NCBI GenBank assembly: GCA_963701855.1
Contig: CAVPBK010000009.1
Location: 352,001-416,000, forward strand
Length of the DNA stretch: 64,000 bases
From: Nitrospirota bacterium
Lineage (GTDB): Bacteria; Nitrospirota; Nitrospiria; Nitrospirales; Nitrospiraceae
Reading direction: 5' to 3'
Part shown: positions 1,424 to 18,171 of the stretch, one piece after another
Position numbering within the stretch: the first letter of the stretch is position 1
Layout: every line of letters starts with the position of its first letter
Notes under the pieces: generated by a model
What the model saw: the letters and a program-made list of their open reading frames with translations, nothing else
Told to the model about the DNA's origin: nothing
Databases searched by the model: none
Translations under genes and position numbers: made by a program

Positions 1424-1743
1424 CGGAACTCGATTCCCCAGCGTCGTCCGCTGACTTCCCCTTCCGCTCCTCCCACGGTGGATATACTACTGTATCCCTC
1501 CACTTCCCCGTCTCTGAGAACTATGTAGCCAGAGGGACACTTTCTCTCTATGAGCTTCAACGCGTCCCTGCGATGTGGTGATCCCATTGGGCCGCCCCGG
1601 TCTTCCTTGAACAGGTAGGTCACTACGCCTGACTGCTCCGTTTCGTGGGTCAGCAGGACCGCTTGGGAACAGCCAACGCTGATGGCGAACGCGGCCAAGC
1701 CTATCACCTTCGTCCATTGCTTAACTAGGCAGCGTGAATCCAT
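1414..1743 (-). CDS. Small lipoprotein, unknown function
   Basis: Lipobox-like ISVGC after a hydrophobic stretch; overlaps both neighbours in the operon. Confidence 0.65.
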   Translation of the reverse strand: MDSRCLVKQWTKVIGLAAFAISVGCSQAVLLTHETEQSGVVTYLFKEDRGGPMGSPHRRDALKLIERKCPSGYIVLRDGEVEGYSSISTVGGAEGEVSGRRWGIEFRCK

Positions 1744-2527
1744 AGCGCTTCATGATCTCCTGTCCTTGGGGGCCTTTGATGAATTCAAGAAACTGTCTCG
1801 CGGCTTCTGGATTTTTGGACTGCTTCAAGATCACAACTCCCTGTTCCAGAGGCAAGTGTGCAATCGCCGGAATCTCCCAGTACTGCCCGGCGGCCTTCAT
1901 CGCTGGTGCTGTCGCCAAGGACAACGCAACGATTCCAATGTCGCAGGCGCCGGATTCAATGAATTGCGCCGTTTGCGAAATATTCTCCCCCAAAATGAGC
2001 TTGTCTTTGACCTGGTCATAGACCTTGAAGTATTCCATCGAGGCCACTGCCGCCCTGCCATAGGGAGCATGTTTGGGATTGGCGATGGCGATCTTCTTGA
2101 TCGTCGGTTCACGCAAAATCTCCAGCCCCTTGGAGAGATCGAGGTGCGAATCATTGCCGGTCCACAAAACAATCCGCCCGACGGCATAGGGATAGAGCGA
2201 TCCAGGCACGACTAGGCCGGCCTCTTCCAGTTTCTTGGGGTAGCCAATGTCGGCTGAAAAGTAGAGGTCAAACGGCGCGCCATTTTGAATTTGCGAGAAG
2301 AAATTGCCCGAGGATCCCAACGTGAGTTTCACATGCTCTCCGGTTTGCTGTTCGAACGTTGGGATCAACTCCTTGAATGCAAAGCTGAGATCGGAGGCAG
2401 CGGCTACCGTCAACTCTCCCGCCTGCCCTGACGGGGCCATGGAAAAGCCCATGATCATGAACAGGGCACACAGTACAGGCACTATGAGTACCCTCATTCT
2501 CCACATGTAACCCTCGTTGACTCCCAT
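1721..2527 (-). CDS. modA: Molybdate ABC transporter substrate-binding protein
   Basis: AAASDL, GSSGNF..QIQNGAPFDLYFSAD, IAIANPKHAPYG, GENISQT; signal peptide. Confidence 0.93.
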   Translation of the reverse strand: MGVNEGYMWRMRVLIVPVLCALFMIMGFSMAPSGQAGELTVAAASDLSFAFKELIPTFEQQTGEHVKLTLGSSGNFFSQIQNGAPFDLYFSADIGYPKKLEEAGLVVPGSLYPYAVGRIVLWTGNDSHLDLSKGLEILREPTIKKIAIANPKHAPYGRAAVASMEYFKVYDQVKDKLILGENISQTAQFIESGACDIGIVALSLATAPAMKAAGQYWEIPAIAHLPLEQGVVILKQSKNPEAARQFLEFIKGPQGQEIMKRYGFTLPS

Positions 2528-2571
2528 CTCAGTACCTCCTCGTTTCCACCGCCATTATCGGTCTTCATTTA

Positions 2572-3047
2572 TCAAACACTCAATGGCCCTCCAACCCCAA
2601 CGCTGCGAACCGGTCGCTTGGGCCGCAATTCCATGACATCCGGGCTTGAGAAACAAAGACGAACCAACTCAGGGTCAATTACGATATTCACTGTCTCCCA
2701 CGCTCATGGAAGACGATCCGATCGATCCAGCGATTCCACCGCTGTTTGCTCCGACGAAATATCCCAGCTTCTAAACAAACTGCCTCAGCAGCAATCGTGG
2801 CCACCACTCGTTGTTCAAGGAGAACACACCGCTCATCATCGATCGACCACTTCACACGCAAATCCATTCGCTCCAAGATTTTGATTCGGACACCGGCTCG
2901 GACAAGCCACATATGCTGAGATTGAATGACCCCCATTATCCGATTGATCCCGGTGCCTTCCGCACATGCATAGGCCATTTCGATCATGTGGTCTCTTTTC
3001 ACATTGCTACAGAAGTCTGGAACCCACCGCATTCCACCTTCCATCAT
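2572..3047 (-). pseudogene. Possible TOBE-like protein split by a frame change near 2690
   Basis: ORF 3047-2688 (..NRWIDRIV) stops; a shifted frame continues VNIVIDPELVRL to TGA 2572, resembling a TOBE last strand. Confidence 0.4.
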
Positions 3048-3064
3048 GGGTCAGCCCCATTGCG

Positions 3065-4852
3065 TTAGAAGAAGATTTGATACTGGACACGGATCATATT
3101 TTCAATCAGCGTCCCTGCATTGACATCTAATGGAACCTTACCGGATGGGAAGTTGGTACCGACAGCCGGCAACGGAGCGCTTCGGCCGATCGCGAACCCG
3201 CCTTGCCCCATGGCTATATTGCTATAGGTAAGCATGATCTGGTGGTCATAGGTTCCGCTCAGAAACCAGTTGAGAGACACGTCCACTTCCTTGATCAGAT
3301 CACTGGCTGAATGGGTATCAGGATCCCAGTAGGCGTACCGTGCCGCCACCTCCAATTGTCTCGGAATCAAATAGTAGCCTGATTGCACCGACCAGCCAGT
3401 TGAATTACCAAACTGCCCTGGAGCAAATGCGGTACAAGGCCCCCCTTGTACCGCCGTCTGTAAACATGGAAGCCCCTTCTCATGCCGGGTTATATTCCTG
3501 AACCAATATTCGGCTTGCAGGGAAAAGCCCCGATATTTGAAGACATAATCCAATGTTTCGGTGGAAAAGTCGACGACTCCCTGCCCAAGAATTCTCCCAT
3601 TTCCAGTTAGGGCCAGCGATCGCCTGAGATTTAGATTTGCCAGATCGATGCCGACAAAACTGTTATCCGTGCTGGTGTTAAGCCCGGGATTATAGGCATA
3701 GCCTCCCCCGATCACCATTTGAGGAGCCTCCGAGTAGGCAATATCACCTTCGCCATAGCCCGCCCGGCCCAAGATATTCCACTGCAACCGCGCCGTATAC
3801 ATGAGCTGGTTGATGCTGGTACGGACATTGGCGTTGAGATTCCGGTTATTCGCCGGGCAGCCTGCCGGAGAGGGAAACGGATTTCCTGAGGTTTGACCTC
3901 CCGGGCACCCCACCGTGGGCTCTTCGCTGCCGAATTGAGCAAACCGGTTCACGAGAGGACCTTCGCCATTGAAGACGCCGAAATAATAATTAACCGGGTA
4001 CACCTCTTCATCATTCATGATCGTGATGCCGACGTCTCGGCGGTTCAGCCCGTTGGCCGTAAACGCATCCATCGCAAGGGCGCGAGCGGCAAACTGCATC
4101 GCCGCCGTCGAATTAATCTGCGACCGATTGAAGTAAACCTTGTACTGGCCAAGTTGCACATTCAACCATGGGATATGAGTGCTCATCACGGTCGCATCAA
4201 GCATCGTCAAGGCGCCCGGAGCCTGCGCATTTTCTGCCGTCTCACCCGCGATTTGAAATAAGTATTTTAGTTCCGGGCTGAAGAGATGGCCCATGAAGTA
4301 GAGCCGCGCGGTCCTCAAATTGAACGTTGAGGCTTCATCGATAGTGCGATTGGCCCGGTAATCACCGAAGACGCCCAGCAGTTCCGGAAAATCTTTGGAG
4401 TCTCCTGTCGTACGCCAGGCATCATTTCTCGATCGCTGCGTATAGCGGGTTGCAAAGCGACCGCGGATTTTTAACAAGAAGGCGTTATCATTCATGGAAA
4501 AGTTGAAGCCACGATCATACCAGGCCTTAAAACTCGGCTGGAGCAAATAGGTTCGCTCCTGCGACGCTCTGACGACCGCATCGTATTCTTCCTGCGTGAT
4601 GGACCCCTGTTTGACAGCTCGCTCCAGGAGCAGTTTGGTCGCCGGATCCATACTCTCAACAAAGACATACTTCCCGTCCTTCTCCACCAATTTTCCCGCA
4701 TCAGCGGCGAGAGCCAGTTGTGGACCGAGCCATACCGCACAGGCCAAGCACAGAGCGAATCCAATATTCTTGTTCCACTGCGGGACAGCAATTGGAATGA
4801 CGGATAATATCCGAATGAACCTGAATGCCTTCCACCTGCCACGACCCTTCAT
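3065..4852 (-). CDS. OprO/OprP-like anion-selective outer-membrane porin (Mo arm)
   Basis: LLERAVKQGSITQEEY N-terminal segment, QLGQYKVYFNR, RRDVG, KYRGFSLQAEY, C-terminal QYQIFF barrel signal. Start uncertain. Confidence 0.8.
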   Translation of the reverse strand: MKGRGRWKAFRFIRILSVIPIAVPQWNKNIGFALCLACAVWLGPQLALAADAGKLVEKDGKYVFVESMDPATKLLLERAVKQGSITQEEYDAVVRASQERTYLLQPSFKAWYDRGFNFSMNDNAFLLKIRGRFATRYTQRSRNDAWRTTGDSKDFPELLGVFGDYRANRTIDEASTFNLRTARLYFMGHLFSPELKYLFQIAGETAENAQAPGALTMLDATVMSTHIPWLNVQLGQYKVYFNRSQINSTAAMQFAARALAMDAFTANGLNRRDVGITIMNDEEVYPVNYYFGVFNGEGPLVNRFAQFGSEEPTVGCPGGQTSGNPFPSPAGCPANNRNLNANVRTSINQLMYTARLQWNILGRAGYGEGDIAYSEAPQMVIGGGYAYNPGLNTSTDNSFVGIDLANLNLRRSLALTGNGRILGQGVVDFSTETLDYVFKYRGFSLQAEYWFRNITRHEKGLPCLQTAVQGGPCTAFAPGQFGNSTGWSVQSGYYLIPRQLEVAARYAYWDPDTHSASDLIKEVDVSLNWFLSGTYDHQIMLTYSNIAMGQGGFAIGRSAPLPAVGTNFPSGKVPLDVNAGTLIENMIRVQYQIFF

Positions 4853-4862
4853 AAATCCATCT

Positions 4863-5572
4863 CTACAAATATGCTCTGGAATCAAAAATGAATGCCGGGA
4901 AGAGACGCTGATTCGAATGGCTGCTTAGGGCGACGGGGCTGTTTTGAGAAACTTTCAGATAGTCGACGCCTCGCCAGTCGGTCTTAGGGTCATCCAGATA
5001 AAATCGACCCGGCTCGAAATATAGGAGGTAGGTCTTCGCAGGGGTCCAGGGCGTTGGATAGTTGTAATCGTAGGGATCGGATGTTCTGACCGGCTGCTGA
5101 ACATGAAAGTAATCGATGGTCAGATGGAGTAGTTGATCGTGCACCGCCACCCACCCGCCTGTGACATCGCGTCGGAACCGCGGGTTCATACCGGGAGCGA
5201 AGAGTTCGAAATAGACTCGTGCCTCAGGCCCCACCTTCTGCAGCGCATCGGCAAGTTGCGGAGCCAGTACCTGTAATTCGTCTTCGCGGAAGATCTTCTT
5301 CGGGGGAGTTTCTTCGGCATACCACCGAAGCGGCAGGCGCTGTTGCTCGCGCAGCGAAAAGCCGCGGAGTATTGCCGCCACCTGTTCGGTGTAATCTGAA
5401 CAGGATGCGTATAGCTGGCCGGCGTGATTTCCCGTTGCAGCATGACGGACAGCCGTTGGTCCTCATGCACCACCGTCGTCGTATAGGGAATCCGGGCACA
5501 TCCCAGACCAATCAACACGAGAACGGCAGCCAACAGAGTTGCTGGCTTTCTCATAACGTTCATCTGGGGCAT
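4863..5572 (-). pseudogene. Lipoprotein, paralog of 11832-12554, with a 1-nt frameshift near 5388
   Basis: LIGLGC lipobox ..YTHPVQITP in one frame continues EQVAAILRG..IFREDELQVLAPQLADAL..RVYF in another; the intact paralog reads NAHPATLTATEVGTLLRG. Confidence 0.75.
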
Positions 5573-5614
5573 GGTGAACCTCCTTCTAGTTTTCCTTACT
5601 CCATCATACATATA

Positions 5615-6481
5615 CTAATGACTGGTATAATTGACATATTGGGTAAAAAAATATTCCGGCTCGTCACTTGCTTGCCCAGGCAGTCCATAGCCCAATCCCT
5701 TTAGGATACTTTGGGCTTCTGGAGATTGGGAAAACGTCAGAAACTCTTCACAGAGCGGGCGATTGGGGCAGAACCGTTCCATTGCCAGAGAATGGGTGAT
5801 TGGACGGACAGCCTGCGCCGGTGCGACGGCTACGACGCGAACTCTCTCCCGTTTATCATAGGCGTCCGGCCCGAAGATGATGCCGACGTCCGCTTGTCCG
5901 TTGAGCAGGCGATCCAAGACACCGCGCGCATCCATTGCCACATCTAACCGTCCTTTCAGTGCCCCTGTGATCCCCAAGGCCTTGAAGAGTTCGCTCGTCT
6001 GCTGCCCGACCACAGTCAGCCCAGGATCTGCGACAGCTACTCGTAGCCGAGCATCCTGGGCAAGCGCCTCAAACGATGACGGCGCATCGACGAGCGATTC
6101 AGGCACGACCAACACTAAGGAGACAGTGGCATACGGCCGGCGCGTCTGTGGGAGCACATAATACTTCTGTTCCAAGCGAGTGATCAGCTCATCGCCGCCC
6201 GGTGCAATGATGTGGATGGGGCCCGAGCCGATGAAGTATTGTCCCGAGGAATGATTCTCCATCGCTGCGACCGTGCGACGCAGATCAAAATCTGAGTCGA
6301 AATAGAGACGTACCTTCACATCCGGGTGGGTCGTCTCAAATGCGCGACCCAAGGCTTCCAGGGGAATGGCCAAGCTGGGTGACCCCGCGATCACCAGCAG
6401 CTCGCTCGCTGAGGCTGAACCGATTCTTCCGGCTATCAGAGCAACGACGATCAACACGGTCATTTTTACGAAATTTTGCAT
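5615..6481 (-). CDS. Divergent ModA-like periplasmic binding protein
   Basis: Signal peptide; AGSPSL, RVAVADPGLTVVG, GQADVGIIFGPDA, C-terminal SPEAQSILKGLGY. Confidence 0.8.
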   Translation of the reverse strand: MQNFVKMTVLIVVALIAGRIGSASASELLVIAGSPSLAIPLEALGRAFETTHPDVKVRLYFDSDFDLRRTVAAMENHSSGQYFIGSGPIHIIAPGGDELITRLEQKYYVLPQTRRPYATVSLVLVVPESLVDAPSSFEALAQDARLRVAVADPGLTVVGQQTSELFKALGITGALKGRLDVAMDARGVLDRLLNGQADVGIIFGPDAYDKRERVRVVAVAPAQAVRPITHSLAMERFCPNRPLCEEFLTFSQSPEAQSILKGLGYGLPGQASDEPEYFFTQYVNYTSH

Positions 6482-6520
6482 GGATGTCCTGAGCACGAAC
6501 CTCTGTCACTCTCGGCTCAT

Positions 6521-7690
6521 CTACAATGTTTGCAGCTTGCCGGTGTCCCTCGTGTCGTAACCCCCGAGCGCCTTGATCTCTGCGCGAAACGAGCGGCTGA
6601 CGATAGTGTCAAACAGGTTGGCCAGCGTTGGATGGGACTTCAGATAGGCTTTGGGAACCACGAGGTCATATCGAGCGGCTTGAAGCGGCACAAAATCGAG
6701 GCCAAAGAGTTGTGCTGCAGACCGGATCCCAATCCCGACATCAGCTTGATGATTTGTGATGGTCCTAGCCACTTCGAAATGAGACGACACGGTTCTCTCG
6801 TACCCTCGTACTTGATTCGGATCGATCCTCGCCGCACGCAACCGCTGATCCAGCAACAGCCTGGCCCCAGCTCCCTCTTCTCGATTCACAAGTGTGATGT
6901 TAGGATCGGCTACATCGCTGACTGCACGGATAGACTTGGGATTACCTGCTCGAACGAGCAAGCCCTCTTCCCAGGTCGCAAACGTGACGACTTCATAGTT
7001 TGAACCTTTCAGCGCACGTCGGAGGAACGGCAGGTTTGATTCCCCGGTCGTCGGGTCAAAAAGATGCAGGCCTGCGACATGAACCTCGCCCTGCTGCAAA
7101 GCCCGAAGCGCCGCCGTGCTCCCCATTGTCCAGCCCACGATGGAGGTCTGATCCTTCCGCTGATGCAAATGCGCGCCGACGAGAAAGATCGCGGGATCAC
7201 AACCAGCGACAGAAATTTCCTGTTCAATCGCCTGACAATCGCGCGAGAGGTTTACTCGCACCATGGCACCCGATGCCTGACCATGGACATCCGTCGCGTA
7301 GCCATCGGCAGCCACCGTATACGAAAGCGCCTCACCCAATTCTGAGACGGGTCGCACGATCATACGGGTCCCTACCCTGGCCACCTTCACACGAATCGTC
7401 GAGATCTTCTCATCGCGCTGAGGGAAACCCCCGATCAGTTTCCCTTCAATGGCATCATGCGCCTCTGCAAGACTGAAGAGATCTTCCACGCGACAGCCCA
7501 ACACAGCAGCCATTCGAAGCGCCACTGCGGTGGTGGGTAAGTAGAGGTGAGATTCGATTGCCGAGACGGCCTGCCTGGTGATTCCGGATTTTCCGGCAAG
7601 TTCACCCTGTGAAAGACCTTGAGTGACTCGAATTCGTTTTAGATGATTCTGGAAATGGTCCGTAGATTCCGCTCGGTGAGCCTGTCCCAT
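6521..7690 (-). CDS. XRE-family HTH fused to a molybdate-binding PBP-like domain (transcriptional regulator)
   Basis: LSQGELAGKSGITRQAVSAIES..ALRMAAVLGCRVEDLF; C-terminal GSTAALRAL..HVAGLHL..VNREEGAGARLLLD..ADVGIG..LGGYD. Confidence 0.88.
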   Translation of the reverse strand: MGQAHRAESTDHFQNHLKRIRVTQGLSQGELAGKSGITRQAVSAIESHLYLPTTAVALRMAAVLGCRVEDLFSLAEAHDAIEGKLIGGFPQRDEKISTIRVKVARVGTRMIVRPVSELGEALSYTVAADGYATDVHGQASGAMVRVNLSRDCQAIEQEISVAGCDPAIFLVGAHLHQRKDQTSIVGWTMGSTAALRALQQGEVHVAGLHLFDPTTGESNLPFLRRALKGSNYEVVTFATWEEGLLVRAGNPKSIRAVSDVADPNITLVNREEGAGARLLLDQRLRAARIDPNQVRGYERTVSSHFEVARTITNHQADVGIGIRSAAQLFGLDFVPLQAARYDLVVPKAYLKSHPTLANLFDTIVSRSFRAEIKALGGYDTRDTGKLQTL

Positions 7691-7704
7691 AGTGATGCAA
7701 TGGA

Positions 7705-7722
7705 TAGCATGTATACTTGCTA
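7705..7722. promoter_or_regulatory. Palindromic operator candidate TAGCATGTATACTTGCTA
   Basis: 16/18 dyad symmetry, 15 nt upstream of the HTH-PBP start; half-site GCAAGTAT follows. Confidence 0.5.
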
Positions 7723-7843
7723 CTTTGCAAGTATGCGGTCAGTGATTATTTAAGTTCTCGTGCATTTCAGGATTGAGGTCACCGATTAAGATCTCTCTAT
7801 TTATGCAATTATAATAAGCGAAAGCAATGGATAAATTTTATTG

Positions 7844-7872
7844 TTGACAATATAGATTGACTTAGTTATAAT
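7844..7872 (+). promoter_or_regulatory. Sigma70 promoter driving the sulfur arm
   Basis: Exact TTGACA (7844-7849), 17-nt spacer, TATAAT (7867-7872) in an AT-rich divergent intergenic region. Confidence 0.85.
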
Positions 7873-7882
7873 ATTAAATCAT

Positions 7883-7909
7883 TAATCATGACCGGAATAA
7901 TAGGAATTA
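7883..7909 (+). promoter_or_regulatory. Possible Rrf2/CymR-type operator
   Basis: TAATCATGACCGGAATAATAGGAATTA just downstream of the -10; the ATAGGAATTA half resembles CymR boxes as I recall them. Confidence 0.4.
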
Positions 7910-8964
7910 AAATAGTGCTTACACTTATCCAGCGGTTTCACTATCAAAAGCTCTTCTTGAGCTCGCTTGTCGTCGTCCTCCTCCTGACAGCGACCACGGT
8001 TCCCTCTCCGTCCTCAGCACTGGATTGGGTGCCGACTGAGGAGGAGATCAAGAAGTATCGCAAGAGCTGGAATCCCCTGTCCCACGGCCCTGTTCTCCTC
8101 CAGGCAGTCGATGTACAACCGAAAGGGCAGCTTTCAATTCGAGAATTCCTTTTCTCACAAATCGGAGAGAGCAGCTTCGGCAATCACCTCAGCTTTGCGA
8201 CTGACAGCAAAAACGGCCCAGTTCATCTCTACCAGGTGTCGCCCTCCGTCAATGCTTCCTACGGACTGACCAATCATGTCGAATTAGGTGTCGCACTTTC
8301 GATGAATTCGTTCTGGGCCACCCAAAACGGACAGAGCACGAGTTCGACCGGCGTAGGCGACACCTCGCTCATCATGAAGTACCGGCCGATCATCCAGGAC
8401 CCTGAAAGCTGGCGCCCTTCCCTTACCCATTACACGCAAGTTGTACTACCCACCAGCCGTTGGGCCGATGCAGAGAAACCACCTGGGGGGTTCACGCCCC
8501 TCGGACGACTTCCCAGTACGCGATTTGGCGAATATGGGCTGACGCAAGGGCTTATGACGCGAAAGAACCTCGAGCCCATTCGCATCAGCGCAGCCGTGTT
8601 TTATACCTACGCCGCACCCGGAGAGAACGGCGGACAGAACACCTACACCGGCGACATAGTCAACACGCGCCTGATCTATGAGCACATACTCAATGACAAG
8701 AACGGGTTCGGGTACAACATCGAAGTCAGCACCTTGCACGGGCTTACCTGGCGGGCGGACGGACACGACATCAACGCAGGACAGAGAAACGGCTTTACGA
8801 TTATCGGTGTGGAGCCTGCGCTTCAATGGAACTTTTCTCAAAACTGGTTGGTCGCCGTCGGCTGTCTGTTTACTGTTGCAGGCCAGAATGCCACCAATTC
8901 CACCTATCCAAATCTGTCTGTCTTTTGGATGTGGGACAAGAGTGGAAAGATTACCATGCGATAG
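7888..8964 (+). CDS. Outer-membrane beta-barrel, MetA-pathway/SphA 'transporter'-like
   Basis: Signal peptide; SYGLTNHVELG, GVGDTSLIMKYR, amphipathic strands. True start probably downstream of 7888. Confidence 0.65.
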   Translation: MTGIIGIKIVLTLIQRFHYQKLFLSSLVVVLLLTATTVPSPSSALDWVPTEEEIKKYRKSWNPLSHGPVLLQAVDVQPKGQLSIREFLFSQIGESSFGNHLSFATDSKNGPVHLYQVSPSVNASYGLTNHVELGVALSMNSFWATQNGQSTSSTGVGDTSLIMKYRPIIQDPESWRPSLTHYTQVVLPTSRWADAEKPPGGFTPLGRLPSTRFGEYGLTQGLMTRKNLEPIRISAAVFYTYAAPGENGGQNTYTGDIVNTRLIYEHILNDKNGFGYNIEVSTLHGLTWRADGHDINAGQRNGFTIIGVEPALQWNFSQNWLVAVGCLFTVAGQNATNSTYPNLSVFWMWDKSGKITMR

Positions 8965-8996
8965 CCCGTCACACGAGAGCGAGCAGGACCGTCATC

Positions 8997-9179
8997 ATGG
9001 GAAGTACAGAGCAATCAGATCGGCAGGACCATCAAACAATCGAGCACGCGATTCGACTCGCACTCAGAGGCATCCGCTTTGGATCCGTTGAAATCATCGT
9101 TCACGATTCCAAAGTCGTGCAGATTGAGCGCAAGGAGAAGACACGTTTTGACGGCGAAGGTTCTCCGTCCACGCGCTGA
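8997..9179 (+). CDS. DUF2292/YezD family (OscA-like sulfur-starvation protein)
   Basis: IRLALRGIRFGSVEIIVHDSKVVQIERKEKTRF signature; lies upstream of sulfate genes. Confidence 0.88.
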   Translation: MGSTEQSDRQDHQTIEHAIRLALRGIRFGSVEIIVHDSKVVQIERKEKTRFDGEGSPSTR

Positions 9180-9228
9180 GGTCAGGATGATTCGTCACAG
9201 CTATTGTCGTTGCTAAAGGAGAACAACG

Positions 9229-9305
9229 GGCCGTCCAGATGACTGGAGGCCAAGACCGACTGTTTCAATCGTCAAATTGAGAACTGACCGGACCACCGGA
9301 GGTTC
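9229..9305 (+). ncRNA. Tandem cis-regulatory hairpin candidates
   Basis: GGCC-GT-CCAG-ATGA-CTGG-A-GGCC (9229-9251) and GAACT-GA-CCGG-ACCA-CCGG-A-GGTTC (9281-9305) share the same topology with covarying stems. Confidence 0.55.
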
Positions 9306-9326
9306 ACATGTCACGGAGGGAGCGAC

Positions 9327-10970
9327 ATGAGAATTTCCGGTGTGTGGTTTCTGGCAATTGCACTGCTCACGCTGCTGGCAGGCCTGCCGCTACAGGCTCG
9401 GGCGGTGGAAGAAGGCCAGCTTCAGAAGAAAGACGGCCGATGGGAGTATCTGCCGAGTGAAGACCCCGGCCTCAAGTATCTACTCCTCAAGGGAATCATT
9501 ACCCAAGATGAGTACGACAAGGGGCTTAAGACCTTGGAGACCAGAGAACGGATCGTGAAACCGAACTTCAACATCGACGTCAACAACGGCTTGAATATCC
9601 GCGTCGGCTCGAAATTCATGCTCAAAATGCGGCTGCTCACCCAGGTGCGCTACAGCTACAGTACCTTTAATAATGCCTGGGGGACTGTCGGAGACTCGAG
9701 GAACGAAGAAATTCTGGGAGGCCAGGTCGAATTTCGAGCTTTTAAACGCCAGAGTAATTCGAGTCAGTTTTCGGTTCCCCGGGCCCAACTCCAGTTCCTG
9801 GGGTTCGCCTTCGATCCCGACCTTCGCTACAACGTGTCTTTGCAGATGGATTCAACGACATATAACCAAGAAGGCGGTAATGGAAGAGCCACCCTCCAAG
9901 ATGCGTACATCTCTTCCTGGCATATCCCATGGGCAACCGCCCAGTTCGGCCAGCAACGGGTCTGGTTCAATCGCGCCTTGATCAGTTCTTCGGCCACGTC
10001 CACGTTCGCCGACAACATGATCGTGCAGAATGTGTTCGCCTCCAACCTTCAGAGCAGTCGTGATGTCGGGATCAACATCCTGAGCGATGAGGATCAATAC
10101 AAATTCAACTATGCCTTTGGCATTTGGGGAGGCGTCGGGGCGAATCTCGATCGGGACGGCACCGCTGTCAGCCAAAGGGTGCTGCCCCCTACCGGAACTC
10201 CAGGAGCGCCTAATTCTGGGACAACCAGAACTTACAACTACGACACCCGATTCATGAGCGGCGAATTAATGTATACGGCCCGGGTGCTGTACAAAATTGC
10301 CGGCAATCCGGGGTATGGGCAGGGCGACATCCTGAACTCCCGCACACTGCAATCTGCCATCGCCTTCGGGTACGCGTACGACCCAGGTCAGAACTATCTG
10401 AGTGCCACACGCTCCGATATTGTCGATCGCGCATACCGCCAGGCAGTGGCCAAAGCCATGAACGGCCGACTCCTTGGCGGAGGTATCTACGATTTTCAGA
10501 CCTATGAAACGGATTTCATTGCGAAGTACCAAGGCTGGTCGCTCCAAACAGAAGGGTACTACAGACACCAACGGGTACGGAACAAGGATGCCGGTACCCT
10601 AGCATTCGACAACGGAACGATCCCGACGAGCCCGCTCGCCGTAGGTCCCCCGGTGGATCTCGGCCAAGCCTGGGGCTGGTACGTGCAAGTCGGCAAGTAC
10701 ATCATTCCCAGGAAGCTCGAACTGGCCGTTCGGTATGGAGTACTGGATCCGTCCACCAAACAAAAAGACGATCTGACCAAAGAGTTCGGCGCCGCCATCA
10801 ACTATAGCTTTGACGGCACCTACAACAATCGGCTCATCATCGACTACTCCAACATCACTATGGGAAGCGGCGGGCGCGCACCGGACCGGTTCCCGTTCGA
10901 GAATCAACCGGGATTCGGTCGCGATCTCGTCGAAAACCGCATCAATGTGCAGTACCAGTTCTATTTCTAA
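9327..10970 (+). CDS. OprO/OprP-like anion-selective porin (S arm), paralog of 3065-4852
   Basis: LLLKGIITQDEY, QFGQQRVWFNR, SRDVG, KYQGWSLQTEGY, QYQFYF; GGAGGGAG SD. Confidence 0.82.
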   Translation: MRISGVWFLAIALLTLLAGLPLQARAVEEGQLQKKDGRWEYLPSEDPGLKYLLLKGIITQDEYDKGLKTLETRERIVKPNFNIDVNNGLNIRVGSKFMLKMRLLTQVRYSYSTFNNAWGTVGDSRNEEILGGQVEFRAFKRQSNSSQFSVPRAQLQFLGFAFDPDLRYNVSLQMDSTTYNQEGGNGRATLQDAYISSWHIPWATAQFGQQRVWFNRALISSSATSTFADNMIVQNVFASNLQSSRDVGINILSDEDQYKFNYAFGIWGGVGANLDRDGTAVSQRVLPPTGTPGAPNSGTTRTYNYDTRFMSGELMYTARVLYKIAGNPGYGQGDILNSRTLQSAIAFGYAYDPGQNYLSATRSDIVDRAYRQAVAKAMNGRLLGGGIYDFQTYETDFIAKYQGWSLQTEGYYRHQRVRNKDAGTLAFDNGTIPTSPLAVGPPVDLGQAWGWYVQVGKYIIPRKLELAVRYGVLDPSTKQKDDLTKEFGAAINYSFDGTYNNRLIIDYSNITMGSGGRAPDRFPFENQPGFGRDLVENRINVQYQFYF

Positions 10971-11010
10971 ACGCATGCTGAACGTTATCACGATGACCAG
11001 GAGGTTCTTT

Positions 11011-11832
11011 ATGACACGCCCAAGTGTTCTGTTGAGAAGTCTATTGTTCCTTAGTGTCTTGACCACAACCGTGTGGACCGCGCCGCCTGTGCAGGCGGCG
11101 CCTGAGACCGTCACGATCGCGGCTGCCAACAGCTTGAGGGAGGCCTTTCGACAAATACTCCCGCTCTTCGAAGCGCACAATAAGGACATCAATGTGCGAG
11201 TTATCTACGGGCCCTCTCAAACCCTCAGCAAGCAAATCGAAGAAGGCGCACCGATCGATGTGTTCCTGCCTTCGCAGGTTGAAGAAATCGACCAACTCGA
11301 GGAAAAAGGGCTCGTCATTCAAGGCACAAGACGTGTCTATGCCGGTACTTCGTTGGTCCTGATCGCCGGCACTGAGCTCCCGGCGCCAATCGCGTCGGTC
11401 CAGGATCTTCGCACAACTCTGATCCGGTACATTGCCATCGGCGACCCGAAAACCTCGTCGGTGGGAAAAGTAGCGGCTCAGTATCTCAAGTACAGCAAGC
11501 TCGACTCCCAACTCAAGTCGCAACTTGTCTATGGCGAGCATTCGCGAGCCGTCCTGGACCTGGTCGCCAAGGGCGAAGCCGATCTCGGCATCGTCTACCG
11601 CACAGACGCCGTATCGAATAAGAAGATCCGTATTCTCGACGAGGCCCCGGTGGACTCGCATTCACCAGTCCGCTACGGAGTCGCTGCAGTCTGGACCGCA
11701 AAGAACATCTCGGGCGCAGGAGATTTCATCAATTTTCTGGGGAGACCCCAGATCCAAACGCTCTTGCAAGACTACGGCTTCGATCGCATCGCCGAGTCGT
11801 CCGGCGTCGCTCAAAGACGGGAGGGACAATAA
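11011..11832 (+). CDS. ModA-like oxyanion-binding protein
   Basis: AAANSL, GPSQTLSKQIEEGAPIDVF, IAIGDPKTSSVG, GEADLGIVYRTD, LQDYGF. Confidence 0.85.
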   Translation: MTRPSVLLRSLLFLSVLTTTVWTAPPVQAAPETVTIAAANSLREAFRQILPLFEAHNKDINVRVIYGPSQTLSKQIEEGAPIDVFLPSQVEEIDQLEEKGLVIQGTRRVYAGTSLVLIAGTELPAPIASVQDLRTTLIRYIAIGDPKTSSVGKVAAQYLKYSKLDSQLKSQLVYGEHSRAVLDLVAKGEADLGIVYRTDAVSNKKIRILDEAPVDSHSPVRYGVAAVWTAKNISGAGDFINFLGRPQIQTLLQDYGFDRIAESSGVAQRREGQ

Positions 11833-12554
11833 TGAATCGCCACCAATACAATTTGACGCGTGGGTCGGCATGGCCCCTGCGCGCACTGTTCCTCATCGTC
11901 GGTCTCTCCATCGCCGCCGGTTGCGCGAGCCAACCTATCTCGCCATCGAGGACGGTCTACGAGGCTGGGTTGAATACGGTCCGGTTGGAGCAGGACCCTG
12001 ACTCCACGTCCAATGCGCATCCTGCCACGTTGACGGCAACTGAAGTCGGCACGTTGCTCCGGGGGGTCCGCGCATCGGAGCGGCGGAACATCGTTCACCG
12101 CCTCATTTTCGGCCAAGCTGATCAAACCAGGGCATTCCGGAAAGAAGAGATCGCCGTGCTGGCGTTGCCTCTTTCAACAGCGCTCTCTCTGGCTGAGCCG
12201 ACAGAACGTGTGTACTTCAACTTGAGTCATGCCACGGATCAGGGAGATCAGGAAACCACCACGGGCTGGATCTCCATCCAAGGGCCGATTCTGCACCTGA
12301 TCATCAGCGCCGTACACACCAGGCATAGCCCCGGTCCCGATATCAGCAAGTATGACCGTCAACTGCCGAACATTCCGGAGGCCTCGGCATTGTATGACGT
12401 GACGTTCGAGCCGGAGTATTATCTAGCCAAGGTGAGTTCGTCGCCCCGTTTCTGGGCGCCGGATCAGCGGGAAGAGTTGCAGATTCTATATCAGGATGCG
12501 CTTGCCGGGTTGACCGTTCAGCCCGCCCCAGAGCGCGAAGGAAAGAAGCCTTAG
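11832..12554 (+). CDS. Lipoprotein of unknown function
   Basis: IAAGC lipobox; TAATG stop/start overlap with the upstream gene; paralog at 4863-5572. Confidence 0.8.
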   Translation: MNRHQYNLTRGSAWPLRALFLIVGLSIAAGCASQPISPSRTVYEAGLNTVRLEQDPDSTSNAHPATLTATEVGTLLRGVRASERRNIVHRLIFGQADQTRAFRKEEIAVLALPLSTALSLAEPTERVYFNLSHATDQGDQETTTGWISIQGPILHLIISAVHTRHSPGPDISKYDRQLPNIPEASALYDVTFEPEYYLAKVSSSPRFWAPDQREELQILYQDALAGLTVQPAPEREGKKP

Positions 12555-12582
12555 TCACAGCCGTGAGTGGTTGGCGCCGAGC

Positions 12583-12613
12583 GAATGGCGGCAGGAATGT
12601 CCTGCTGCCATTC
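12583..12613 (+). other. Intergenic 14-bp stem-loop
   Basis: GAATGGCGGCAGGA-ATG-TCCTGCTGCCATTC with one G-U pair; no U-tract. Confidence 0.55.
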
Positions 12614-12634
12614 ATCGAAGAGGCAAAGAGGTCA

Positions 12635-12949
12635 ATGAGTATCCTTGTTGTCGGTGGCGATTCAGCTGAGATGTTCCGGCAGCAGACCGGCGGCGGGCAT
12701 GGATACGTCGAGCATTGGAGCGGTCGTAAGAACCGCGACATGGCAAAGTCCATTCCCAAAGATACGGAAGCAGTGGTCGTCGTGCTGGATCGGGTGAGCC
12801 ATGGACTGGCTCGCAAGGTCCGAACCGAAGCGACACGTCGCGGCCTTCCCGTCTTCTTTCAAAAGCGAGCACGGCATGCGAGTCCGATGGATCATGACCC
12901 CATGGATTTGGCCCAATGGCTGAGCAAGACCTCGGAGATCAAGAAGTAA
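12635..12949 (+). CDS. DUF2325-domain protein
   Basis: MSILVVGGD..HWSGRK..IPKDTEAVVVVLDRVSHGLARKVR..GLPVFF. Confidence 0.8.
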   Translation: MSILVVGGDSAEMFRQQTGGGHGYVEHWSGRKNRDMAKSIPKDTEAVVVVLDRVSHGLARKVRTEATRRGLPVFFQKRARHASPMDHDPMDLAQWLSKTSEIKK

Positions 12950-13039: not shown

Positions 13040-14062
13040 ATGATGTTGAAGCCGTTCGTTCTCACGCTTGCGCTCCTGACCGGAGCCTTGGGATTCACGT
13101 CGTCTATCCAGGCGGCAGGATCCGTTTCCATCCTGAACGTCTCATACGATCCGACACGCGAACTCTACCAGGAGTTCAATGTGGCGTTCGCCAAACACTG
13201 GTTGGCCAAGACGGGCCAGACCGTCAAAGTCTTGCAATCCCACGGAGGATCGAGCAAGCAGGCACGAGCTATCATCGATGGCTTGGAGGCCGACGTCGTG
13301 ACGCTGGCGCTGGCCTACGATATCGACGCCATCTCCGAAAAGGCCGGGCTGCTTCCAGCAAACTGGCAGAGTCGTCTTCCCAACAACAGCGCACCCTACA
13401 GCTCGACGATCACGTTCCTGGTCCGCAAGGGCAATCCCAAGGGCATCAAGGATTGGAACGACCTGGTCAAACCAGGAATCTCCGTCATCACCCCAAACCC
13501 CAAGACCTCCGGTGTCGCCCGCTGGAACTACTTGGCTGCATGGGGCTATGCTCTGAAACAATCCGGCGGCGATGAAGCCAAAGCGCAGGAATTTGTCCGG
13601 CAACTTTTTAAGAACGTGCCGGTGCTCGACTCGGGCGCCCGCGGCGCCACAACCACCTTCGTGGAGCGGGGCATCGGCGACGTTCTGATTAACTGGGAAA
13701 ACGAAATCTTGCTGAGCACCAAAGGCTCGGGCAAAGACAAGTTCGATATCGTCGTGCCGCCAATCAGCATCCTGGCAGAGCCGACGGTCAGCGTCGTAGA
13801 CAAGATCGTGGACAAGCGAGGCACCAGGCAAGTAGCTCAAGCCTATCTGGAATATCTCTACTCTGAAGAAGGCCAGGACATTGCCGGCAAAAACAACTAC
13901 CGCCCGCAGCTTCCATCAGTTGCCGCCAAATATGCTACGAATTTCCCGTCGGTGGAGCGGTTCACGCTACAAGAGGTCTTCGGCAACTGGCAGAAGGCGC
14001 ACAAGGCGCACTTTGCCGATGGCGCCAGCTTCGATCAAATCTATTTGCAGGGCGCAAAGTAG
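13040..14062 (+). CDS. sbp: Sulfate/thiosulfate ABC transporter substrate-binding protein
   Basis: [42 protein letters not shown]. Confidence 0.97.
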
Positions 14063-15018: not shown

Positions 15019-15927
15019 ATGTCGACAGAGACCGTTGCCAGAGTAAGAAACGAAGAGTGGAACGCCTCATTGACCAGCGAAGGCGCCTTGGTTCGATGGG
15101 CACTGATTGTCGCGGCTCTCGGATACCTGACGCTCTTCCTGTTTATCCCCCTCGCAGCTGTGTTTACCGAAGCGCTGAAGAACGGACTTGAAGGCTACTT
15201 CGCCTCATTCACGGACCCGGATACCCTGTCGGCGATTCGCCTGACCTTCCTCGCCGCATCCCTGGCCGTTCCACTCAACCTCATGTTCGGCGTCTCTGCA
15301 GCCTGGGCCATCGCCAAATTCGAATTCGTCGGTAAACAGATTCTCATCACGCTCATCGACATCCCGTTGGCCGTGTCCCCCGTCATCTCGGGATTGATTT
15401 ACGTGCTGCTCTTCGGAGCGCAGGGCTGGGTGGGCCCCTGGCTGGCCGAACACGACATCAAGATCATCTTCGCCCTGCCGGGCATCGTGCTCGCCACCAC
15501 CTTTGTCACCGTTCCATTTATCGCGCGCGAGCTGATCCCATTGATGCAATCACAGGGACGAGAGGAAGAAGAGGCGGCGCTCACGCTGGGCGCGTCGGGA
15601 TGGCACACGTTTATTCGAGTCACTCTCCCGAATATCAAGTGGAGCCTGCTCTATGGGGTCATTCTCTGCAATGCACGGGCGATGGGAGAATTCGGAGCGG
15701 TCTCCGTCGTGTCAGGCCATATTCGGGGGCTCACCAATACGATGCCGCTTCATGTCGAGATCCTGTACAACGAGTATAACGCCGTCGGGGCCTTCGCGGT
15801 GGCCTCGCTCCTCACCTTGTTGGCCATTGTGACGCTTGTCGTCAAAACAGTCATCGAACGGAAATCCGCTTCATCACGATCGACTCATGATCCTGCATCA
15901 ACCACGCAGCCAGGGAGTCCATCGTGA
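15019..15927 (+). CDS. cysW: Sulfate ABC transporter permease CysW
   Basis: [41 protein letters not shown]. Confidence 0.96.
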
Positions 15928-17006
15928 GTATCCAGGTCGATCACGTCACCAAACGATTCGGCAGCTTCACCGTCCTGAATGACGTGAGCCTTCACGTACA
16001 GACTGGAGAACTCGTGGCGCTCCTCGGTCCATCCGGTTGCGGCAAGACCACCCTGCTCAGAATTCTGGCTGGATTGGAGAGGCCCGACCAGGGACGAATT
16101 CTCTTGCATGGCGACGAGGTAACGGAACAGCGCATCACCGACCGGCGCGTGGGATTCGTGTTCCAGCATTACGCGTTGTTCCGGCATATGACCGTCGCAG
16201 AAAATGTCGCATTCGGACTGACCGTGCTTCCCCGCCCGCAACGGCCTTCTCCTGACCAGATCCAGAAGAAAGTCCATGACTTGCTGTCATTGGTCCAGCT
16301 GCAGGCGATGGCCGACCGCTATCCAAATCAGCTTTCCGGAGGGCAACGTCAACGCGTGGCCTTGGCCAGAGCGCTGGCCGTGGAACCGAAAATGCTTCTG
16401 CTTGATGAACCCTTTGGCGCACTGGACACCAAAGTCAGAAAGGAACTGAGACGCTGGCTCCGGCGACTCCATGACGAATTGCACATTACAAGTATCCTAG
16501 TCACGCATGACCAGGAAGAAGCCTTAGAAGCGGCAGACCGTATCGTGGTGTTGAACCAGGGGCATATCGAGCAGATCGGCACGCCGGAGGAAGTCTATGA
16601 ACACCCGGCAACACCGTTCGTGTACCGCTTCCTCGGCGATGTGAACGTGTTTCATGGCCGAATTGCCCACGACGAGACTGCGCACGAAGAGGCGGACGGG
16701 CAACCTCCTGCAGGGAGAGACCCTTCGAACGAACATGAGGTCACCTTTGTCCGTCCCCACGACCTGGAACTCAGCCGAAGCCGGACCACGACGACACAGC
16801 TCGAGGCGACCGTACGATTTGTCATCACAGCCGGATCGCGCGTCCGCCTCGAGCTGGTCTCGAAAAACTCTCCGCAAACCATTGAGGTTGAACTCACCAA
16901 AGAGCGTTATCGCGAGTTACGGCTTCAACAAGGCGATGTGGTCTTTGTGCACCCGAAACAACTACAAGTATTCAAAATGCCCGGCCCCTTATCTGGGAGG
17001 CCGTGA
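15924..17006 (+). CDS. cysA: Sulfate ABC transporter ATPase CysA
   Basis: [38 protein letters not shown]-terminal TOBE-like region. Confidence 0.96.
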
Positions 17007-17094
17007 TCCGTGTGAGTACGCATTTCACCGATGCGGGTGCCGGCCGACAGCAGCAATCCGCAACGAGGTAACTGCAACTCGTAGAGCTAAAGTC

Positions 17095-18171
17095 ATGAGT
17101 ATTGAAACACCTCTCCAGATCGTGACTGCGGACCCGCACACACTGGCCCTCTCTATCCGGGCCAGTTGCCTGGTCTTTGAAGACCCTGCGTCCAGAGCAC
17201 TACTGAAACGTGTGCAACGGATCGCTCCGAGCAATGCGACGGCCCTCATCATCGGCGAGACCGGCACCGGCAAGGAGCTGATCGCGCGCCACATCCACGA
17301 ACTGAGCGGTCGCCGATCCGGCCCGTTCGTGGCGTTCAATTGCGCCGCGATCAGCGAATCCTTGATGGAAAGCGAACTCTTCGGCCATGAGCGCGGCGCC
17401 TTTACCGGCGCCGTGGCCGCCAAGGCCGGCTGGTTCGAAACCGCGCAGGGGGGCTCGTTGTTCCTGGATGAGATCGGCGATCTCCCACTCGTGCTTCAGG
17501 CCAAACTGCTGCGGGTCATCCAAGAGCGGGAAGTCATCCGTGTCGGATCGCGCCAGTCCATCGCCATCGATGTACGATTGATTGCGGCGACAAACGTGAA
17601 CCTGGATGACGCAGTGGCGGCAGGGCGATTCCGCGAGGATCTCTACTACCGGCTTCATGTGGCGCCGGTACCGCTTCCTCCGCTGCGGGAGCGTCCCGGA
17701 GATATTCTGCCGCTGGTTCACCACTTTCTGAAGATCTACGGAACTCGTCTCGGATTCGCCAGTGCCGACCTCGCTCCCGACGCGGTGCAGCAATTGCTCG
17801 ATTATCCTTGGCCAGGCAACATTCGCGAGCTGGAAAACACCGTCCATCATGCGCTGCTCGTCTGCCCCGATCACACCGTGCGCCCCGAAGATCTGCGCCT
17901 CCCCGCTCCACGATCCCCACAACCGCCCGCACCGGCAGCGGGCTCGACGCAGTCATTGGAAGCGCTCCTTCGTACACTCTTCAACGGCGACAGATCCAAT
18001 CTCTATCGTCGAATCGATGAAACGGTGATTCGCACCGCATACGAGTATTGCGAACGGAACCAGCTGCGGACCGCCCGACTTCTGGGCATCAGCCGCAATA
18101 TCGTGCGCGATCGCCTGAAACAGTACGGACTGCTCAATGTAGAAAAGCAACGGTATTGCCATGATAGCTAA
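17095..18171 (+). CDS. Sigma54-dependent activator with no sensory domain (SfnR-like)
   Basis: VFEDPAS, GETGTGKE, GAFTGA, FLDEIG, WPGNIREL, HTH NQLRTARLLGISRN. Confidence 0.9.
   Translation: MSIETPLQIVTADPHTLALSIRASCLVFEDPASRALLKRVQRIAPSNATALIIGETGTGKELIARHIHELSGRRSGPFVAFNCAAISESLMESELFGHERGAFTGAVAAKAGWFETAQGGSLFLDEIGDLPLVLQAKLLRVIQEREVIRVGSRQSIAIDVRLIAATNVNLDDAVAAGRFREDLYYRLHVAPVPLPPLRERPGDILPLVHHFLKIYGTRLGFASADLAPDAVQQLLDYPWPGNIRELENTVHHALLVCPDHTVRPEDLRLPAPRSPQPPAPAAGSTQSLEALLRTLFNGDRSNLYRRIDETVIRTAYEYCERNQLRTARLLGISRNIVRDRLKQYGLLNVEKQRYCHDS

Follow-up and report, generated by a model that had tools for sequence, protein, structure and literature searches.

A conserved RNA hairpin downstream of DUF2292 genes and its competition with a start-codon sequestor in a Nitrospirota oxyanion and sulfur uptake island

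The stretch of DNA analysed here, which we call the window, comprises 64,000 nucleotides (nt) from a Nitrospirota bacterium of the family Nitrospiraceae (GenBank assembly GCA_963701855.1, contig CAVPBK010000009.1, positions 352,001 to 416,000 of the forward strand). In the window, a gene for a 60-residue protein of the DUF2292 (YezD/OscA) family is followed by a 147-nt spacer and then by a gene for a porin-like outer-membrane protein. The spacer carries two small hairpins, H1 and H2, and H2 overlaps a further hairpin, the sequestor, which pairs with the start codon of the porin gene. We conclude that the window holds a real, conserved and uncatalogued cis-regulatory RNA; the anatomy of this leader, the covariation of its stems, the mutually exclusive pairing of H2 and the sequestor, and the link between the RNA and the DUF2292 gene family across phyla are direct observations. 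The features of the leader and its two flanking genes are as follows, with coordinates counted from the first letter of the window and lengths of proteins in amino acids (aa).

8997-9179, + strand: DUF2292 (YezD/OscA family) gene, 60 aa, with a PF10055 match; candidate trans-acting partner of the hairpins
9208-9228, + strand: upstream hairpin CGUUG-CUAAAGGAGAA-CAACG with a Shine-Dalgarno (SD)-like loop, seen in the minimum free energy (MFE) fold and conserved only in the Nitrospira clade
9229-9251, + strand: H1, GGCC(9229-9232)-GU-CCAG(9235-9238)-AUGA-CUGG(9243-9246)-A-GGCC(9248-9251), folding at -15.1 kcal/mol
9281-9305, + strand: H2, GAACU(9281-9285)-GA-CCGG(9288-9291)-ACCA-CCGG(9296-9299)-A-GGUUC(9301-9305), folding at -11.1 kcal/mol
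9294-9342, + strand: sequestor hairpin, arms 9294-9312 and 9324-9342, -27.2 kcal/mol, pairing the start codon (9327-9329) and first codons of the porin gene
9327-10970, + strand: porin-like outer-membrane protein, 547 aa; the regulated gene in the proposed switch

H1 and H2 start 52 nt apart, and in each an ANNA tetraloop caps a stem broken by a 2x1 internal loop, with GGAGG in the 3' strand. The original prediction, made from the letters of the window, had described two hairpins of the same topology whose stems differ in sequence and still pair, and both parts of this description hold: the first on reading the sequence, the second through the strong covariation reported below. It had also stated that both hairpins bury GGAGG; the motif is indeed present in both 3' strands, but it is not a conserved feature, as the 3' strand of H2 reads A-RG and many relatives have GGAAG. 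On the sense strand, H2 fits the hairpin definition C-UGA-CNNG-loop(3-6)-CNNG-A-RG, and the leader (9177-9340) folds with a z-score of -3.1. The generic hairpin pattern CCRGNNNNCYGGAGG has two matches in the window against 0.18 expected. A genome-wide repeat was considered and rejected, the pattern giving 23 matches versus 11 for the reversed control in 4.3 Mb, and a second H1-H2 copy in the genome was likewise rejected, the next best model match (13.9 bits) lying inside a coding gene. The window scores 76.9 bits with our covariance model R1, a value that holds by construction because the window is in the seed alignment; relatives outside the seed score 59-84 bits. A search of Rfam 15 gives no match in the leader (9180-9326) at E<=10, and H2 falls in none of its families when 19 further loci are scanned at E<=1, in agreement with the earlier statement that the element has no named RNA family.

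Two readings of the leader as translated sequence were rejected. A short open reading frame (ORF) starting from the AUG in the H1 loop does not fit relatives, in which the loop reads AAAA, ACAA and the like. Ribosome-coupled attenuation through translation of DUF2292 was discarded as well: from the stop codon it is 49 nt to H1 and 101 nt to H2, and H2 copies that are not adjacent to DUF2292 occur without such an ORF.

Conservation was followed from the genus outwards. When 13 orthologous spacers of the genus Nitrospira are aligned, H1, H2 and the sequestor stand out as conserved blocks, the flanking porins being 72-92% and the DUF2292 proteins 47-93% identical. The CUAAAGGAG block of the upstream hairpin is kept in 11 of these 13 relatives and absent in G003 and G005. 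One relative (L011, contig G033:C104, oriented ~1165-1355) carries a ~190-nt insertion with terminal inverted repeats, resembling a miniature inverted-repeat transposable element, inside the CUAAAGGAG hairpin, towards the 5' end of the leader; it leaves H1, H2 and the sequestor undisturbed, and because of this insertion the 9208-9228 hairpin is probably dispensable. Across 61 genomes of the order, DUF2292 occurs in 15, the motif in 15, and both together and adjacent in 14, the two exceptions being cut by contig ends; neither was found in the 24 genomes from the order's other three families. One relative, G031, has two cassettes of DUF2292 and motif on contigs C92 and C710, in an assembly with 5% contamination that may combine two strains.

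Beyond the genus, the RNA was sought both without and with the help of the protein. A DNA pattern for H1 plus H2 that ignores proteins, run on one genome per species, returned 90 stretches; of the 80 that we took, an nhmmer profile separated 54 true loci from 26 chance matches, mostly in coding DNA. The true loci include Gammaproteobacteria, Verrucomicrobiota, Methylomirabilota, Omnitrophota, Binatia and metagenome-assembled genomes (MAGs) of Acidobacteria. For the reverse test, which is an equivalent form of the check proposed with the original prediction (gathering the RNA that follows DUF2292 genes in different phyla), a query built from 12 aligned DUF2292 proteins found at least 557 relatives, and the 80 best loci, whose proteins most resemble those already drawn from loci with the motif, were scanned with the H1-H2 covariance model. 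The motif was present in 51 of these 80 at E<=0.001 and in 72 at E<=1, always on the sense strand and directly after the DUF2292 stop codon.

The 76 model matches from these anchored loci supply the covariation evidence. Paired bases fill 92.5% of cells compared with 79.1% after shuffling, a level that 0 of 500 shuffles reached, in an alignment that was fitted to the model and whose pair counts are tilted in its favour. Of 17 pairs, 16 change on both sides, including all 8 pairs of H1 helices 1-2, and the covariation score is 0.302 versus 0.132 for shuffled and at most 0.094 for slid controls. The inner stem of H2 appears in the compensatory forms CCAG/CUGG, CUGG/CCAG, CAGG/CCUG and UUGG/CCGA around the consensus C-UGA-CCGG-ANNA-CCGG-A-RG. 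H1 is less constant: several phyla have an H2-like second copy, Methylococcales keep the same shape with other sequences, and Asticcacaulis and Pseudomonas have a plain hairpin. A pattern for H2 on its own returned at least 122 stretches, and the matches listed come from Bacillota, Actinomycetes, Chloroflexota, Planctomycetota, Verrucomicrobiota, alpha-, beta- and gamma-proteobacteria and others; of the 80 taken, ~4 are chance matches, mostly in coding DNA. The paired arrangement first noticed is thus real in Nitrospira-like loci, but it is H2 that is the universal core of this uncatalogued RNA element.

The RNA is tied to DUF2292 genes rather than to any one kind of regulated gene. A DUF2292 ORF lies within 500 nt upstream in 53 of the 54 loci found without reference to protein, and the remaining locus is cut by a contig end. 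The first downstream ORF in 70 anchored loci encodes a Porin_O_P protein (33), Alginate_exp (6), a TonB plug (3), a sulfate-type substrate-binding protein (7), an ABC ATPase (2) or a product with no Pfam match (19), and this variety ties the hairpin to DUF2292, not to the porin. With H2 on its own, a DUF2292 gene is found no more than 900 nt away in 42 of 80 loci, and its end almost always lies 12-147 nt ahead of the hairpin. In two Lachnospiraceae/Ruminococcus loci (L253 and L262, at ~880-920), the DUF2292 frame seems to end inside the CUGA of H2, so that stop codon and hairpin would overlap.

The remaining H2 copies, not adjacent to DUF2292, comprise 38 loci in 37 genomes (two in one genome), and 30 of these genomes encode DUF2292 elsewhere; of the seven exceptions, four resemble chance matches in coding DNA and three are MAGs. 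The first ORF after the 33 real-looking non-adjacent copies is cysK (6), cysE (7), sbp (1), cysT (1), ssuA (2) or another gene (3), and the scan of this ORF gave no match in 13; the genes recognised place the element in a sulfur regulon. Among the non-adjacent copies, one precedes a family 2B encapsulin shell gene in a Pirellulales MAG (L321, 1105-1818) and one a NifH-type gene in Butyrivibrio (L272, 1031-1819), both of which would be unexpected members of such a regulon. Pseudomonadaceae permit a comparison within one family, as 99 of 151 sampled genomes have DUF2292: an H2-like hairpin stands upstream of sbp in 11 of 20 DUF2292-positive genomes (12 under a relaxed definition) and in 0 of 18 that lack the gene, a zero that overstates independence because the 18 are small genomes, probably of few clades. 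Taken together, this co-occurrence of gene and RNA fits a protein-RNA pair.

What the hairpin does in the window follows from its overlap with the sequestor. The 3' arm of H2 (CCGGAGGUUC, 9296-9305) doubles as part of the 5' arm of the sequestor, a 19-nt inverted repeat with 84% identity that places the SD sequence GGAGGGAG (9315-9322) in its loop; H2 and the sequestor are therefore mutually exclusive. In both the MFE and the centroid fold of 9177-9340, H1 is kept and H2 is replaced by the 9294-9342 hairpin, and the RNAalifold consensus of the 13 spacers likewise contains H1 and the sequestor, with compensatory pairs (CG:6/UA:5 and GC:6/GU:4/AU:1). The segment 9279-9345 folds at -28.8 kcal/mol when free and at -20.1 kcal/mol with H2 enforced. 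These energies imply that the ground state hides the AUG and that whatever holds H2 closed exposes it. An alternative start at the AUG at 9308 was rejected; other taxa have CGUA or CGUG at this position, which is conserved only as a pairing partner of the real start.

This competition extends well beyond the window. In 73 distinct sequences comprising H2 and 50 nt downstream, the MFE fold pairs 4 or more of 7 bases of the H2 3' arm with downstream sequence in 61, compared with 26% when the downstream part is dinucleotide-shuffled, and the mean energy is -23.7 versus -17.5 kcal/mol. The AUG is paired in 51 of the 70 sequences with a called start codon, a count that left out 14 sequences, 11 in which the search expression missed H2 and 3 without a long ORF, and in which some failures are wrong start calls. 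In other taxa, many of the 38 non-adjacent H2 copies overlap an intrinsic terminator, and the terminators overlapped in this way include ones ahead of cysK, cysE, ssuA and sbp. The switch in the window is translational and H2 is its anti-sequestor, and the control of downstream translation that had been suggested from the sequence is thus structurally plausible. As a separate observation, SD-like GGAGG/GGAGA stretches at 9208-9228, 9243-9251 and 9296-9305 precede the real SD, their conservation being limited to the Nitrospira clade; any of them could pair with the sequestor 3' arm (UUUCCGG/UCUCCGG) or be a ribosome standby site.

The candidate partner is the only DUF2292 gene in the 4.3-Mb genome, and it ends 49 nt upstream of H1; E. 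coli, one of the control genomes, has no such gene. Its product matches PF10055 over residues 17-51 (E 1.3e-16; 60.3 bits, cut-off 22) and reaches 62.8 bits against NCBIfam NF033785 (sulfur starvation response protein OscA, equivalog), under the 85-bit cut-off; judged by these profile scores, it is a family relative and not an OscA equivalog. AlphaFold2, given a 58-row alignment, predicts a helix (residues 3-23) and a beta hairpin (29-36/39-47) with a mean predicted local distance difference test (pLDDT) score of 79.5. A two-copy model supports a homodimer with a score of 0.44, compared with 0.02 for the best control, a mark reached by 20 of 30 solved homo-pairs and by 1 of 23 single chains; the runs share at least 92% of contacts at a pLDDT of at least 64, and strand 26-38 is predicted to pair antiparallel across the interface. 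A symmetric dimer of this kind would suit two like hairpins, and it says nothing on RNA binding. The available part of one earlier paper reports that oscA-sbp is induced by chromate and by sulfate starvation (PMC2996968), and that loss of OscA is linked to chromate sensitivity, the gene being tied to the sulfate-starvation response (PMC2996968, citing Viti et al. 2009).

DUF2292 genes can themselves be riboswitch-controlled. Two Siminovitchia (Bacillaceae) loci have an S-adenosylmethionine (SAM) riboswitch ahead of the DUF2292 gene (L303 511-630, 97.5 bits; L306 206-324, 96.1 bits) and H2 after it, an arrangement that suggests a regulator which is itself under sulfur-related control. In an Alkalibaculum locus (L319 465-604), a cobalamin riboswitch scoring 43 bits lies upstream of H2.

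On this basis we favour, with some confidence, the reading that DUF2292 binds H2, and H1 with it, holds the hairpin closed, blocks the sequestor and turns porin translation on. By default, the 9294-9342 hairpin would form and pair the porin start codon, which would be the OFF state. When H2 (9281-9305) is held closed, its 3' arm would be withheld from the sequestor, only a 6-bp stem would be left over the AUG, and ribosomes could start. H2, together with its look-alike H1 in the Nitrospira clade, would be held by the DUF2292 protein encoded just upstream, acting as a dimer, and in other lineages the same binding would prevent a terminator from forming; in this layout the regulator would come first, its target RNA next and the structural genes after. 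RNA binding by DUF2292, activation as the direction of control and sulfur limitation as the signal are what we infer. The original prediction had proposed such a protein-RNA pair controlling downstream translation or termination, and this interpretation, partly supported by our results, is the best available one, with putative binding as its key step.

Several observations weigh against the reading. With H2 enforced, a 6-bp stem persists over the AUG. The window's DUF2292 protein has zero net charge, counted from its sequence; Foldseek finds nothing for its model at E<=0.001, weak rows from the Protein Data Bank (PDB) such as MazE/AbrB and the coronavirus N-CTD being far above any threshold, and a PDB sequence search finds no relative. 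The selection of the 80 anchored loci and the fitting of the 76-match alignment, both described above, pull in the direction of the proposal, and so does the makeup of the 18 negative Pseudomonadaceae. Eight of the 20 DUF2292-positive Pseudomonadaceae have no recognisable H2 before sbp, so a genome can have DUF2292 with no site next to it. Within the genus, this genome included, the gene is single-copy and always adjacent to the motif, and their co-occurrence could reflect one inherited cassette; further, a riboswitch would equally co-occur with its own regulon.

That last point leads to the strongest competitor, namely that H2, with or without H1, is a minimal riboswitch for a metabolite or ion reporting sulfur status, with DUF2292 a mere member of the regulon and usually the first gene of the operon. 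The expression-platform logic is classic, being anti-sequestor here and antiterminator elsewhere; both the unpaired GA/A and the sequence of the stem hardly change from phylum to phylum; cysK, cysE, ssuA and sbp are preceded by copies with no DUF2292 next to them; and tandem small hairpins can be aptamers, as in guanidine-II. Three genomes with real-looking copies show no DUF2292, but all three are MAGs, and 30 of the 37 genomes with non-adjacent copies do have the gene. A hairpin of ~20 nt, whose stem has 4 bp and whose tetraloop varies, also leaves little room for a pocket, in 42 of 80 loci DUF2292 precedes H2 instead of following it as a regulated gene would, none of the 18 DUF2292-less Pseudomonadaceae keeps H2 before sbp, and in two loci a SAM riboswitch already controls DUF2292. 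We consider a riboswitch unlikely.

It is less probable still, in our judgement, that the hairpins are bound by another trans-acting factor, or that they are processing or stability signals setting the ratio of DUF2292 to porin mRNA with no sensing at all. In favour, the element sits inside an operon, elements that cause differential decay often lie between cistrons, and the GGA-containing strands resemble CsrA sites; however, the GGA is in stems instead of loops and lacks conservation (A-RG). Actinomycetes and Bacillota have the element just as Gram-negatives do, its conserved, mutually exclusive overlap with terminators or start codons would be needless for a mere stability signal, and the strict link to DUF2292 is left unexplained.

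Finally, the notion that a dimeric protein, either DUF2292 or the HTH-PBP_like regulator encoded at 6521-7690, uses CCAG-N4-CTGG and CCGG-N4-CCGG as palindromic DNA operators can draw on two cores that are perfect DNA palindromes separated by 52 bp (about five helical turns), on a regulator gene close by and on the symmetric dimer modelled for DUF2292, but we regard it as very improbable, given that the stems use G-U pairs, which are mismatches on the other strand (UG in 22 sequences at columns 103/142, in 7 at 107/139 and, in a second alignment, A2, in 32 at 70/87), that compensatory changes preserve pairing and not sequence, that all strong matches lie on the sense strand relative to flanking genes, that the 3' arm of H2 has a conserved alternative RNA partner, and that the sites are 1.4 kb downstream of the only promoter-like site.

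The surroundings of the proposed DUF2292-hairpin switch identify the locus as an oxyanion and sulfur uptake island in which the directly controlled gene is the porin. The further features of the island are listed here.

1721-7690, - strand: second oxyanion-uptake set, consisting of ModA, a Porin_O_P paralogue, a weak ModA-like protein and a regulator
1721-2527, - strand: ModA of this second set
3065-4885, - strand: Porin_O_P paralogue of this set
5615-6496, - strand: weak ModA-like protein of this set
6521-7690, - strand: HTH_3 + PBP_like regulator, divergent from the DUF2292 operon
7844-7872, + strand: promoter-like TTGACA-17-TATAAT, 12 of 12 consensus positions; probable operon start, its function judged from the sequence
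7888-8964, + strand: 358-aa protein whose N-terminus is hydrophobic; opens the putative operon
12563-12949, + strand: DUF2325 gene, between the ModA-like cluster and sbp-cysTWA

On the + strand, the order is the 358-aa protein, DUF2292, the 147-nt spacer, the porin, a ModA-type binding protein, a 240-aa protein and DUF2325, followed by sbp-cysT-cysW-cysA and later by cysK. The placement of the hairpins between the 60-residue protein and sulfur uptake genes, as first described, is thus broadly right, but the immediate neighbours are porin-like and ModA-like, and the sulfate transporter genes sbp-cysTWA begin at 13040. A Pfam search with the porin-like protein itself (9327-10970) gave no match; it is 39% identical to the Porin_O_P paralogue at 3065-4885, and its orthologues match PF07396. 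The 358-aa protein has neither a Pfam nor an NCBIfam match. An ORF for a sigma-54 activator (16654-18171, + strand) sits between cysA and cysK; its first ~350 nt as listed run into the 3' end of cysA (15924-17006), and translation probably begins downstream of 16654.

An operon of outer-membrane protein (OMP), DUF2292, leader and porin probably starts at the 7844-7872 site, as judged by its match to consensus, and the scan that found this site detected no promoter-like or terminator-like site in 8997-9326. The sigma-70 consensus ends just 15 nt ahead of the ATG at 7888, and either the leader of this first gene is very short or the 358-aa gene truly starts downstream of 7888. In two studies, metatranscriptomes of close relatives (93-96% identical) yielded contigs that join the 3' end of DUF2292 to the leader (9072-9322 and 9152-9341). 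These contigs, which have low depth, represent small shares, show no ends, strand or level and may include DNA carry-over, lend weak support to one transcript spanning DUF2292 and the leader.

A hairpin that follows DUF2292 in many phyla gives this protein family a testable role as the operator of a switch. A full-text search of the published literature returned no molecular function for DUF2292/YezD/OscA and no description of the hairpin, and a conserved RNA partner would explain the chromate and sulfate-starvation phenotype of OscA. Whether DUF2292/YezD/OscA founds a new class of ~60-residue dimeric RNA-binding regulators that read a 20-nt hairpin, possibly respond to a sulfur metabolite, and activate sulfate, sulfonate and cysteine genes across at least a dozen phyla, either through antitermination or by freeing start codons, seems to us evenly balanced. 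If it does, one more family would join the short list of RNA-binding antiterminators, and a post-transcriptional sulfur regulon with a reach comparable to that of the S-box would come into view: a layer of control upstream of cysK, cysE, ssu and sbp in many phyla that is invisible to genome annotation.

Several known systems resemble the leader in part. The guanidine-II (mini-ykkC) riboswitch consists of two tandem small hairpins with ACGR tetraloops and controls translation. The window similarly has, ahead of a transporter gene, two small hairpins alike in shape that would control its translation; their loops are AUGA and ACCA and vary in relatives, with no ACGR and no Rfam match. Sites for CsrA/RsmA present GGA in hairpin loops, with one site over the SD, whereas the GGA of the window is part of the stem and internal loop, with R in place of the G that follows the A.

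ANTAR proteins read loop bases, and their targets have conserved loop positions. Among the six neighbouring genes scanned (6521-12554), none encodes an ANTAR domain. In the parts of the literature available to us, ANTAR targets are dual hexaloop hairpins (PMC3369931, PMC8934654), and targets acting at the translation level are mentioned (PMC8164766). The likeness lies in two tandem small hairpins that are stabilised by a protein, the 3' hairpin excluding a downstream terminator; the window differs in having variable tetraloops together with a conserved GA/A internal loop and stem, in place of the hexaloops described for ANTAR targets in those parts.

The layout is like that of HutP. In the hutP-hutH terminator of Bacillus subtilis, as presented in the available part of a 2025 review of RNA-binding antiterminators (PMC12591593), the regulator is an early cistron with its RNA target in the next intercistronic region, and HutP is a hexamer that reads single-stranded NAG triplets and opens the terminator; the words sulfur, sulfate, YezD and OscA do not occur in the review. 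As far as this account goes, the proposed switch shares with HutP a regulator that is first or early, a target that comes next, two RNA sites, an oligomeric protein and a binding event that would turn the downstream genes on. The combination of a HutP-family protein and two NAG clusters was not found in the window system: its protein has only a PF10055 match, HutP being unrelated to DUF2292, the conserved unit is a closed hairpin and not a set of NAG repeats, and the competing structure is a start-codon sequestor and not a terminator.

A probable relative of the RNA itself is the 'ssuB-ABC-leader' attenuator of the Bacillus cereus group, which in the available part of Naville and Gautheret 2010 (PMC2965389) is a leader with an annotated terminator before a sulfonate transporter operon and an unknown gene. 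Next to that terminator we recognise by eye, in the portion at hand, an H2-type hairpin, GCUGA-UUGG-loop-CCAA-AGGC (PMC2965389), and on this visual comparison of sequences the attenuator probably belongs to the same RNA family as H2. In that portion of the paper, the hairpin is unannotated, no link to DUF2292 is drawn and no factor is proposed (PMC2965389). The attenuator would represent the transcription-termination version of the element; the Nitrospira leader would show the same hairpin wired to translation as well, and what the window adds is this translational version, a tandem H1 copy and a porin as the target.

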